This document shows positions 7,977 through 24,739 of a DNA stretch of 64,000 bases, piece by piece. Source of the DNA: Escherichia coli (GTDB taxonomy: Bacteria; Pseudomonadota; Gammaproteobacteria; Enterobacterales; Enterobacteriaceae); the NCBI RefSeq assembly GCF_013315695.1, contig NZ_CP054353.1. One strand, given 5' to 3'. How positions within the stretch are numbered: position 1 is the stretch's first letter; every line of letters starts with the position of its first letter. Below the pieces are notes generated by a model. The model had not been told where the DNA came from and made no database searches. It saw only the letters and a list, made by a program, of their open reading frames with translations. The translations under genes were made by a program, and so were the position numbers.

Positions 7977-9023
7977 TCAGAAGCGGGTATCTACCGCAGA
8001 GGCGAGTTTTTCGACCAGGCGTTCGGTATCTTCCCAGCCCAGACACGGGTCGGTAATGGATTGACCGTAAGTGAGCGGCTGACCGCCGACGATTTTTTGC
8101 GTTCCTTCGCGCAGGAAACTTTCCGCCATAATTCCAGCAATCGCCGTAGAGCCATTGCGGATTTGCTGACAAATATCCTCACAAACTTCTAACTGGCGAC
8201 GGTGCTGCTTCTGGCAGTTACCGTGGCTGAAATCCACCACCAGATGTTCAGGTAAATCAAACTCGTGCAGCGTATCGCAGGCTGCGGCGATATCATCGGC
8301 ATGATAATTCGGTTTTTTGCCGCCACGCATAATAATGTGGCCATACGGGTTGCCGCTGGTCTGATAGATGGTCATCTGACCATTTTTGTCTGGCGAGAGG
8401 AACATATGGCTGGCGCGGGCTGCGCGGATAGCATCCACAGCAATCCGCGTGTTGCCATCGGTACCATTTTTAAAACCTACCGGACAGGAGAGTGCCGAAG
8501 CCATTTCACGGTGGATCTGACTTTCGGTAGTACGTGCGCCAATCGCGCCCCAACTGATTAAATCAGCAATAAACTGACCGGTCACCATATCGAGGAACTC
8601 AGTCGCGGTAGGGACGCCCAGCTCATTTACCTGTAAAAGTAATTTGCGCGCCAGCTCCAGACCGTGATTTACCCGATAGCTACCGTTTAAATCTGGATCG
8701 GAGATTAGTCCTTTCCAGCCGACAACAGTTCGTGGTTTTTCAAAATAGGTGCGCATTACGATTTCCAGCCGTGACTGGTACTGGTTGCGCAGCGACTGCA
8801 GACGGGTGGCGTACTCCATTGCAGCGGTGAGATCGTGGATCGAGCAGGGGCCAATAATGACCAACAGTCGCTTATCTTCACCATTGAGTATTTTTTCAAT
8901 TCTGCGGCGGGAGTCGGTGACATGGGTGGCGACGCCAGTCGTTACGGGATACCGTAGCGCGAGTTCGGCGGGCGTTACCAGGCTCTCAATACGCGCAGTA
9001 CGGAGTTCGTCAGTTCTGTTCAT
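7977..9023 (-). CDS. aroH: Trp-sensitive DAHP synthase
   Basis: 348 aa MNRTDELRTARIESLVTPAEL...; class I DAHP synthase. Confidence 0.95.
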   Translation of the reverse strand: MNRTDELRTARIESLVTPAELALRYPVTTGVATHVTDSRRRIEKILNGEDKRLLVIIGPCSIHDLTAAMEYATRLQSLRNQYQSRLEIVMRTYFEKPRTVVGWKGLISDPDLNGSYRVNHGLELARKLLLQVNELGVPTATEFLDMVTGQFIADLISWGAIGARTTESQIHREMASALSCPVGFKNGTDGNTRIAVDAIRAARASHMFLSPDKNGQMTIYQTSGNPYGHIIMRGGKKPNYHADDIAAACDTLHEFDLPEHLVVDFSHGNCQKQHRRQLEVCEDICQQIRNGSTAIAGIMAESFLREGTQKIVGGQPLTYGQSITDPCLGWEDTERLVEKLASAVDTRF

Positions 9024-9168
9024 TACAAGTCTCAGAAATTTGTTGCTTCTACGGCAGGACTACCGGGAAGTGATGCGCATCACGATAAACCAATCGCAGC
9101 TGATTTCAAGTGCGAGGTGTGTCACACCTCGCCGGGTGGTTAGCATGATAACAAAAAAGCAAGCCAAT

Positions 9169-9186
9169 GCACTAGTTTTCTAGTAC
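9169..9186 (-). promoter_or_regulatory. Putative TrpR operator (aroH)
   Basis: GCACTAGTTTTCTAGTAC, near-palindromic match to the Trp box core ACTAG; overlaps the ppsR stop codon. Confidence 0.5.
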
Positions 9187-10013
9187 ATTCGACGGCTAAG
9201 GCCCATGATATCGAGGATCTTGGTGGCAATCTCTTCTACCGAATAATTGGTACTGTTAATCCACGGGATCTGATTTTTACGGTACAACGCTTCCACTTCC
9301 GCGACTTCCATCCTGCACTGACGAAGCGAGGCATAGCGACTGTTCTCCCGACGTTCCTCGCGAATCGCCGCCAGACGTTCCGGGTCGATAGTCAGGCCGA
9401 ACAATTTGTGCTGAAGCGGTTTGAGCGACGCGGGTAGCACCAGATTATCCATATCGTCGGCAATAAAGGGGTAGTTTGCCGCGCGGATACCAAATTGCAT
9501 TGCCAGATACAGACTGGTGGGGGTTTTACCACAGCGAGAAACACCGAGCAGGATCACCTGAGCCTGGTCCAGATTGCGCAACGAAATGCCGTCGTCATGG
9601 GCAAGGGTGTAATCAATCGCCGCAATACGCGCATCATATTTATTGAGGTTATTAGGGTTCAGGCCATGGGTACGATGAGCAATCGGCGTGGGATCCAGTT
9701 TCATCTCTTGTTGTAGCGGGGCAACCAGCGCCTGAACGATATCCTGGCAAAAGCCCTCACTTTGCAAGATGATGGCGCGAATCTCCGGCAACACGATGGA
9801 GTAGAAGACCAGCGGGCGCACACCTGTCTGGTGATAAATTGCGTCAATCTGATCCTTCACTGCCCGTGCACGGCTCTCATTTTCGACAAACGGCAGCGTA
9901 ATGCTGCTGATAGTGACGGGAAATTGTGACATTACTGCGTGTCCTAATACCTCCGCAGTTATTGCCGTACCATCAGAAATATAAAAAACGTGGCGATCAA
10001 CAGCATTATCCAT
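9180..10013 (-). CDS. ppsR: PEP synthetase regulatory protein (kinase/pyrophosphorylase)
   Basis: 277 aa, P-loop GVSRCGKT, divergent from ppsA. Confidence 0.95.
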
Positions 10014-10244
10014 TTTGTTCTTCCCGTGATGCAGACATAATTCTATGAAAGCATAAATTAAAAACGCACAGAAGCGTAGAACGTTATGTCTGGTTTATAA
10101 AATGAAACTTAAATTTTATTTTTTATGAAAACAGCATTTCATTTTTATGGTTTCGTTTATACCGATGGTTTATGTGGAAATTGTCGAAGAGAGCAGATTT
10201 GCGCAACGCTGGGATCAGTCTTAAAAAGTAAAAAATATATTTGC

Positions 10245-23050: not shown

Positions 23051-23748
23051 ATGTATCAACGCTGTTTTGATAACGCCAGTGAAACGCTGTTTGTCGCCGG
23101 TAAAACGCCACGGCTTTCACGTTTCGCATTTAGCGATGATCCAAAATGGGAGTCCGGACATCACGTTCATGACAATGAAACCGAGCTGATTTACGTCAAG
23201 AAAGGGGTAGCAAGGTTTACCATCGATTCTTCGTTATATGTCGCGCATGCCGATGACATTGTGGTGATAGAACGTGGCAGGCTGCATGCGGTGGCCTCTG
23301 ACGTTAACGATCCGGCAACGACGTGTACCTGTGCGCTGTACGGCTTTCAGTTTCAGGGGGCTGAGGAAAATCAGCTACTGCAACCGCATTCTTGCCCGGT
23401 AATTGCCGCAGGGCAGGGAAAAGAAGTCATTAAAACCTTATTTAATGAGCTAAGTGTGATTTTGCCGCAAAGTAAAAATAGCCAAACATCTTCGTTATGG
23501 GACGCATTTGCCTATACGTTAGCAATTCTTTACTATGAAAACTTTAAAAATGCTTATCGTTCGGAGCAGGGATATATTAAAAAAGATGTTCTGATAAAAG
23601 ATATTCTTTTCTATCTGAATAATAACTATCGCGAAAAAATCACTTTAGAGCAGTTATCGAAAAAGTTTCGTGCCAGCGTCAGTTATATTTGCCATGAATT
23701 TACCAAAGAGTATCGCATTTCCCCTATTAACTATGTTATTCAACGGCG
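23051..23748 (+). pseudogene. ydiP: ydiP 5' portion (AraC-family regulator), interrupted by IS1
   Basis: N-terminal cupin-like domain and start of the AraC HTH region; frame continues into IS1 and stops at 23770. Confidence 0.8.
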
Positions 23749-23803
23749 GGTGATGCTGCCAACTTACTGATTTAGTGTATGATGGTGTTTTTGAGGTGCT
23801 CCA

Positions 23804-24079
23804 GTGGCTTCTGTTTCTATCAGCTGTCCCTCCTGTTCAGCTACTGACGGGGTGGTGCGTAACGGCAAAAGCACCGCCGGACATCAGCGCTATCTCTGCT
23901 CTCACTGCCGTAAAACATGGCAACTGCAGTTCACTTACACCGCTTCTCAACCCGGTACGCACCAGAAAATCATTGATATGGCCATGAATGGCGTTGGATG
24001 CCGGGCAACAGCCCGCATTATGGGCGTTGGCCTCAACACGATTTTACGTCACTTAAAAAACTCAGGCCGCAGTCGGTAA
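23804..24079 (+). CDS. insA: IS1 InsA
   Basis: Protein identical to the copy at 17176-17451. Confidence 0.9.
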
Positions 24080-24501
24080 CCTCGCGCATACAGCCGGGCA
24101 GTGACGTCATCGTCTGCGCGGAAATGGACGAACAGTGGGGCTATGTCGGGGCTAAATCGCGCCAGCGCTGGCTGTTTTACGCGTATGACAGGCTCCGGAA
24201 GACGGTTGTTGCGCACGTATTCGGTGAACGCACTATGGCGACGCTGGGGCGTCTTATGAGCCTGCTGTCACCCTTTGACGTGGTGATATGGATGACGGAT
24301 GGCTGGCCGCTGTATGAATCCCGCCTGAAGGGAAAGCTGCACGTAATCAGCAAGCGATATACGCAGCGAATTGAGCGGCATAACCTGAATCTGAGGCAGC
24401 ACCTGGCACGGCTGGGACGGAAGTCGCTGTCGTTCTCAAAATCGGTGGAGCTGCATGACAAAGTCATCGGGCATTATCTGAACATAAAACACTATCAATA
24501 A
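23998..24501 (+). CDS. insB: IS1 InsB reading frame
   Basis: Protein identical to the copy at 17370-17873. Confidence 0.85.
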
Positions 24502-24516
24502 GTTGGAGTCATTACC

Positions 24517-24739
24517 TCAACGGCGTATGACGGAAGCGAAATGGTCACTCACTAATACTGAATTATCACAGACAGAGATCTCCTGGCGTGTGGGTTATGA
24601 AAATGTCGATCACTTTGCCAAACTGTTTTTGCGCCATGTCGGCTGTTCGCCCAGCGATTACCGCAGGCAATTTAAAAACTGTTTTGCGGAACAAGAAATC
24701 TTATCTGAATTTCCTCAACCGGTAAGTCTTGCCGGATAA
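24517..24739 (+). pseudogene. ydiP: ydiP 3' fragment (AraC-type HTH C-terminus)
   Basis: ...MTEAKWSLTNTELSQTEISWRVGYENVDHFAKLFLRHVGCSPSDYRRQF... is an AraC second HTH; continues the frame broken at 23748. Confidence 0.8.

Follow-up and report, generated by a model that had tools for sequence, protein, structure and literature searches.

What happened to ydiP, and what has been left of it? In the 64-kb window analysed here (the whole stretch of Escherichia coli DNA under study, 64,000 nucleotides), this gene for an AraC-family regulator is interrupted by a copy of the insertion sequence IS1, and a further IS1 copy lies in fadK, at the far end of the neighbouring ydiQRST-fadK cluster. Such an interruption can be read as a simple transposition, as a misassembled repeat, as an allele imported by recombination or as one end of a composite element. 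By far the best explanation, held here with high confidence, is that an intact IS1A-type element entered ydiP by simple transposition in an ancestor of the clone to which the window strain belongs, with a null allele as the likeliest outcome.

The original prediction that an IS1 splits ydiP and carries its own duplication is borne out by the anatomy of the locus (Table 1), in which a 768-bp IS1 and one 9-bp repeat can be excised to leave a 303-aa open reading frame. The left end of the element reads GGTGATGCTGCCAACTTACTGAT and the right end ATCAATAAGTTGGAGTCATTACC; by a script check, 18 of the 23 positions of its inverted repeats are complementary. Both ends abut the 9-mer TCAACGGCG, a perfect duplication that has no further occurrence in the 64-kb window, and the probability of such a 9-bp flank identity by chance is 4^-9 (~4e-6). 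A simulated -1 slip at the A6C motif yields an uninterrupted InsAB' of 232 aa, and identical copies in the strains AF3 and MSB1_4I are labelled in RefSeq as 'IS1-like element IS1A family transposase' (WP_103215986.1) with the remark 'programmed frameshift'. The features that define the IS1 family, namely length and inverted repeats, insA and insB' joined through A6C, and a 9-bp target-site duplication, are all present in the ydiP copy. With its coding capacity and ends intact, the element looks functional as judged from its sequence. IS1 copies at least 99% identical were found in more than 6600 E. coli records.

Table 1. Features of the interrupted ydiP locus and of other simple IS1 insertions in ydiP. 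Positions refer to the 64-kb window, except for the last five rows, which give the ydiP nucleotide of insertions found elsewhere in E. coli.
Feature	Position	Strand	Details
Other IS1 copy	17121..17888	+	interrupts fadK at codons 475-478 of 546
IS1-bracketed segment	17889..23748		5.86 kb: fadK', ydiT, ydiS, ydiR, ydiQ, ydiQ-ydiP spacer, 'ydiP
Whole interrupted ydiP	23051-24739	+	1689 bp
ydiP 5' fragment	23051..23748	+	codons 1-232 and first two bases of codon 233
Left target-site duplication TCAACGGCG	23740..23748		ydiP nt 690-698
IS1 (IS1A-type)	23749..24516	+	768 bp, 23-bp imperfect terminal inverted repeats
insA	23804..24079	+	91-aa InsA, GTG start
insB' frame	23998..24501	+	open up to stop 24499-24501
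A6C slippery motif AAAAAAC	24055..24061	+	IS position 307; programmed -1 frameshift, insA-insB' fusion
Right target-site duplication TCAACGGCG	24517..24525
ydiP 3' fragment	24526..24739	+	last base of codon 233 to stop; second helix-turn-helix
Simple ydiP IS1 insertion	nt 141		duplication GAGCTGATT
Simple ydiP IS1 insertion	nt 468		duplication GCCTATACG
Simple ydiP IS1 insertion	nt 534		8-bp duplication TTAAAAAA
Simple ydiP IS1 insertion	nt 591		8-bp duplication AAAAAATC
Simple ydiP IS1 insertion	nt 853		duplication TTAAAAACT

Removal of the IS and one repeat joins 23051-23748 to 24526-24739 and restores a 912-nt open reading frame, whose product aligns with the annotated intact YdiP of strain G5 at 301 of 303 residues, an outcome in agreement with the original assignment of the gene. 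In the N-terminal part of this reconstructed protein, Pfam models for Cupin_2 (residues 30-89, E = 7.6e-11) and AraC_binding (28-144, E = 2.4e-10) were matched, and in the C-terminal part those for HTH_18 (202-281, E = 1.3e-20) and HTH_AraC (251-280). The two homeodomain-like halves of YdiP have been placed at residues 179-230 and 232-284 (supplement of PMC8464067). The reconstructed YdiP displays the two-helix-turn-helix DNA-binding domain and the N-terminal cupin-type domain of AraC/XylS regulators, and no uninterrupted frame across both helix-turn-helix units exists in the window. The IS1 breaks the gene after the second base of codon 233, within HTH_18 and between the two helix-turn-helix units, not where the sensor adjoins the DNA-binding domain. 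The frame of the 5' fragment runs into IS1 and reaches a stop at 23770, which gives a 239-aa product consisting of YdiP 1-233 followed by VMLPTY. The original prediction had the sensor separated from the C-terminal helix-turn-helix, which is correct for the second unit, now detached, but not for the first, which stays with the cupin/AraC_binding sensor in the 239-aa product. Apart from a TTG within the right IS1 end, the 3' fragment lacks a start codon and a promoter of its own; this TTG opens a 78-aa open reading frame (24503-24739) that spans the fragment and its second helix-turn-helix. In RefSeq, the corresponding pseudogenes of AF3 and MSB1_4I are named 'cupin domain-containing protein' (5' fragment) and 'helix-turn-helix domain-containing protein' (3' fragment).

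In AraC-family proteins, both helix-turn-helix units are required for site recognition, as exemplified by the structures of MarA and Rob. A null ydiP allele would therefore be the likeliest outcome, and the domain architecture makes the loss of YdiP function very likely, in line with the earlier expectation of a nonfunctional gene. A truncated YdiP that keeps the sensor and the first helix-turn-helix could still be partly active, for instance by binding DNA weakly or by titrating a ligand. The G+C content of ydiP is 43%, and falls to 39% within 50 bp on either side of the insertion site, compared with 51-54% in the neighbouring genes.

Of 5426 complete E. coli genomes, 5342 have an uninterrupted ydiP site according to a search with a 120-bp empty-site probe, and an 80-bp probe placed over the left IS1-ydiP junction recovered the exact junction only from AF3, MSB1_4I and 1368KP among the same 5426 genomes. 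AF3 (NZ_OZ547117.1) was obtained from blood in the UK and MSB1_4I (NZ_LR898874.1) from a rectal swab in Australia, and in both all 1689 bp of the interrupted ydiP are identical to the window. Private IS copies aside, the window matches MSB1_4I without a mismatch across 15,928 bp and with one across 3,449 bp, and differs from AF3 at 2 positions across the ~19 kb of surroundings; at this level of sequence agreement, the window strain, AF3 and MSB1_4I are one clone. The ydiP::IS1 allele is thus already known, being annotated as two pseudogene fragments and an IS1 in two RefSeq genomes. A 4.2-kb island at 12754-16939, located between ppsA and fadK and encoding an anion permease, a 2-hydroxyacid dehydrogenase, a YhcH/YjgK/YiaL (NanQ-like) protein and an SDR oxidoreductase, is shared by the window with AF3 and MSB1_4I; K-12-like strains such as 1368KP and HS have only ~67 bp in its place.

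The second IS1 of the window lies in the same orientation as the ydiP copy, as had been stated originally, and the two duplications are indeed distinct, with TCAACGGCG at ydiP and GCGCATGAA at fadK (17112-17120 and 17889-17897). The two copies form direct repeats identical at 766 of 768 positions (99.7%), the differences being at IS positions 28 and 103. fadK is intact in both AF3 and MSB1_4I, the fadK::IS1 junction was found in 0 of the 5426 complete E. coli genomes, and none of the complete genomes searched carries the ydiP and fadK insertions together. By parsimony over the three genomes we infer that ydiP::IS1 is ancestral to the clone, and that fadK::IS1 came later and is private to the window strain. 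AF3 contains an extra IS1 in ydiF (locus 11961-12728), which has the same sequence as the ydiP copy and is inverted, so that two of the three sampled clone members have gained a further IS1 within the 11.5-kb ydi cluster.

Among other accounts of the ydiP insertion, misassembly deserves attention, since the genomes of the clone contain at least 40 IS1-matching places and such repeats are a classic source of collapsed or misplaced copies. A perfect 9-bp duplication is, however, the biochemical signature of a true insertion, and the same structure, identical to the base, recurs in the complete genomes of AF3 (UK) and MSB1_4I (Australia), which were sequenced independently; with both assemblies in agreement, an artefact is very unlikely, to the point of being hardly credible. 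The strain 1368KP (NZ_CM173843.1, locus 9292-10077) raises another possibility, namely that the allele was imported by homologous recombination and that a single ancient event is common to 1368KP and the clone, as the same 768-bp IS1 sequence, equally oriented, interrupts ydiP at one and the same nucleotide in both. The ydiP flanks of 1368KP nevertheless differ from the window at ~28 positions, the nearest of which are the last base of the left repeat, which reads TCAACGGCT where the right one reads TCAACGGCG, and a site 47 bp beyond the right end of the IS. With differences so close to the element, an import would have had to span little more than the IS. Under uniform targeting, 12-22 independent IS1 hits in a 912-bp gene would coincide exactly with a P of ~0.04-0.12, which makes an independent insertion in 1368KP plausible. 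Only a slim chance is therefore left to a shared, recombined allele, and 1368KP was probably hit independently at this nucleotide, with a point change thereafter.

The pair of directly repeated, 99.7% identical IS1 copies around a block of genes also resembles a composite transposon of the Tn9 type, in which case both elements and the intervening 5.86 kb would have arrived as one transposed unit. Such a unit is expected to be framed by a single outer duplication, but the window has GCGCATGAA at the left outer flank and TCAACGGCG at the right one, and both IS1 copies lie between matching repeats of their own, which points to two separate simple insertions. Furthermore, the genes of the interior stand in their native order on the chromosome, colinear at 0-1 mismatches with AF3 and MSB1_4I, that is, with relatives that lack the fadK copy. 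A composite-transposon origin was rejected on account of the separate duplications and the native place of the interior, and its probability is as close to negligible as that of misassembly. Two independent simple insertions remain the preferred reading, and the resulting IS1-bracketed structure could later act as a composite or undergo deletion. The direct IS1 pair would render the 5.9-kb fadK'-ydiTSRQ-'ydiP segment prone to deletion through recombination, with a single IS1 between GCGCATGAA and TCAACGGCG as the predicted product.

Lesions caused by IS1 are found at several other places in and around ydiP (Table 1), and two more insertions lie in the ydiQ-ydiP spacer or at the 5' end of ydiQ. 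An inverted-IS query returned at least 10-12 further genomes with IS1 in ydiP; an orientation rule was rejected, as both orientations occur. In total, at least about 30 genomes carry IS1 in ydiP, compared with 11.7 expected if chromosomal IS1 places were uniform, and a strong hot spot is not supported by an excess of only ~2.6-fold. This excess fits an AT-rich and evidently dispensable gene. Several of the insertions around ydiP sit in A-rich runs, and their duplications comprise both 8-bp (TTAAAAAA, AAAAAATC, CAATCTTG, CAACAATG) and 9-bp forms. Five IS1 copies, in HS, BDSF8-3, B25FEP, APEC_AN-25 and 873.10, have no duplication and are situated beside deletions. In E. coli HS (NC_009800.1, locus 9001-9768), a commensal reference strain in which ydiF is frameshifted as well, an IS1 directly connects ydiP at ~nt 657 with the sequence downstream of ppsA; the deletion has removed fadK, ydiT, ydiS, ydiR, ydiQ and the greater part of ydiP. 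The rest of the ydi cluster is intact in many strains with ydiP::IS1, including 1368KP, 2 HS-C, CUPF12 and MSB1_4I.

As originally described, ydiP is divergent from ydiQRST-fadK, with ydiQ (start 22735) on the minus strand and ydiP (start 23051) on the plus strand, separated by a 315-bp spacer. The accompanying suggestion that ydiP may regulate the cluster finds no support in the published data consulted, which tie YdiP to cold-shock genes. Five YdiP sites have been mapped by ChIP-exo, near sdhC, uxaB, secG, cspA and yihQ (PMC8464067), and binding at ydiQ is absent from this list, which was obtained under conditions that were neither anaerobic nor fatty-acid based. Poor growth of a ydiP mutant at 15 degrees C has been reported, together with occupancy of cspA and cspE by YdiP, and the name CsiP has been proposed for the protein (PMC9283627); the supplementary text of that study, likewise concerned with conditions neither anaerobic nor fatty-acid based, makes no mention of ydiQ, ydiO or fadK. 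YdiQR are still without an assigned function (PMC9329746). The shared ydiP::IS1, followed by two independent IS1 hits in fadK of the window strain and in ydiF of AF3, would fit a reading in which the loss of ydiP and the decay of the ydiF-ydiO and ydiQRST-fadK cluster are selected, or at least linked, in some host-adapted lineages. We regard this as unlikely; if true, it would mean that YdiP is functionally tied to the ydi cluster, much as had been suggested originally. The direct IS1 pair of the window sets up a fadK-ydiQ deletion that E. coli HS has already undergone.

In IS1 transposition, InsAB' binds both ends of the element and joins them to a 9-bp staggered cut, and the repair of the gaps makes the duplication. 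For the ydiP copy, InsAB' produced via the -1 frameshift at A6C would have bound both terminal inverted repeats and joined the IS1 ends to a staggered target cut, the repair of which would have duplicated TCAACGGCG. The landing site is in the AT-rich ydiP, where the sequence encodes the helix that links both helix-turn-helix units of the AraC-type DNA-binding domain. The resulting product would comprise YdiP 1-233 and six IS-derived residues and lack the second recognition unit, and the remaining 70 codons are left without expression signals of their own, so that a ydiP null allele is the likeliest result. This insertion would have occurred before the window strain, AF3 and MSB1_4I diverged, and that in fadK would be a separate and later event.

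ydiP::IS1 is an ordinary event caused by a textbook IS1, with an anatomy that is in no way unusual, and its importance beyond strain annotation is slight: ydiP is to be annotated as a pseudogene in the clone, and fadK too in the window strain. With ydiP so classed, the published roles of YdiP in cold-shock csp regulation and growth at 15 degrees C (PMC9283627) are expected to be lost there. The deletion-prone IS1 pair is relevant to assembly comparison and primer design in the region.

Compared with the ydiP::IS1 of AF3 and MSB1_4I, the window has an identical interrupted ydiP and differs in that fadK, intact in those strains, is cut. HCP6S3_I2, CUPF12, 2 HS-C, TB354, 405 and 1368KP likewise have an IS1 in or beside ydiP with 8- or 9-bp duplications, but, 1368KP aside, at other positions than in the window, and some of these copies belong to other IS1 isoforms with up to 27 mismatches. 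The deletion forms of HS, BDSF8-3, B25FEP and APEC_AN-25 are unlike the window in having no duplication and in the loss of neighbouring ydi genes. In common with Tn9-type composites, the window contains passenger genes bracketed by two directly repeated IS1 copies; in contrast to them, its block is in its native place and each IS1 has one duplication of its own, in place of the shared outer duplication of a composite. With IS1A and IS1R of E. coli K-12 and plasmid R100, the ydiP copy shares its length of 768 bp, its termini (GGTGATGCTGCC and GGTAATGACTCC), an insA-insB' pair joined through a -1 frameshift at A6C, and a target duplication of 9 bp. There is no substantive difference from these elements, and the insertion site alone is specific to the clone.
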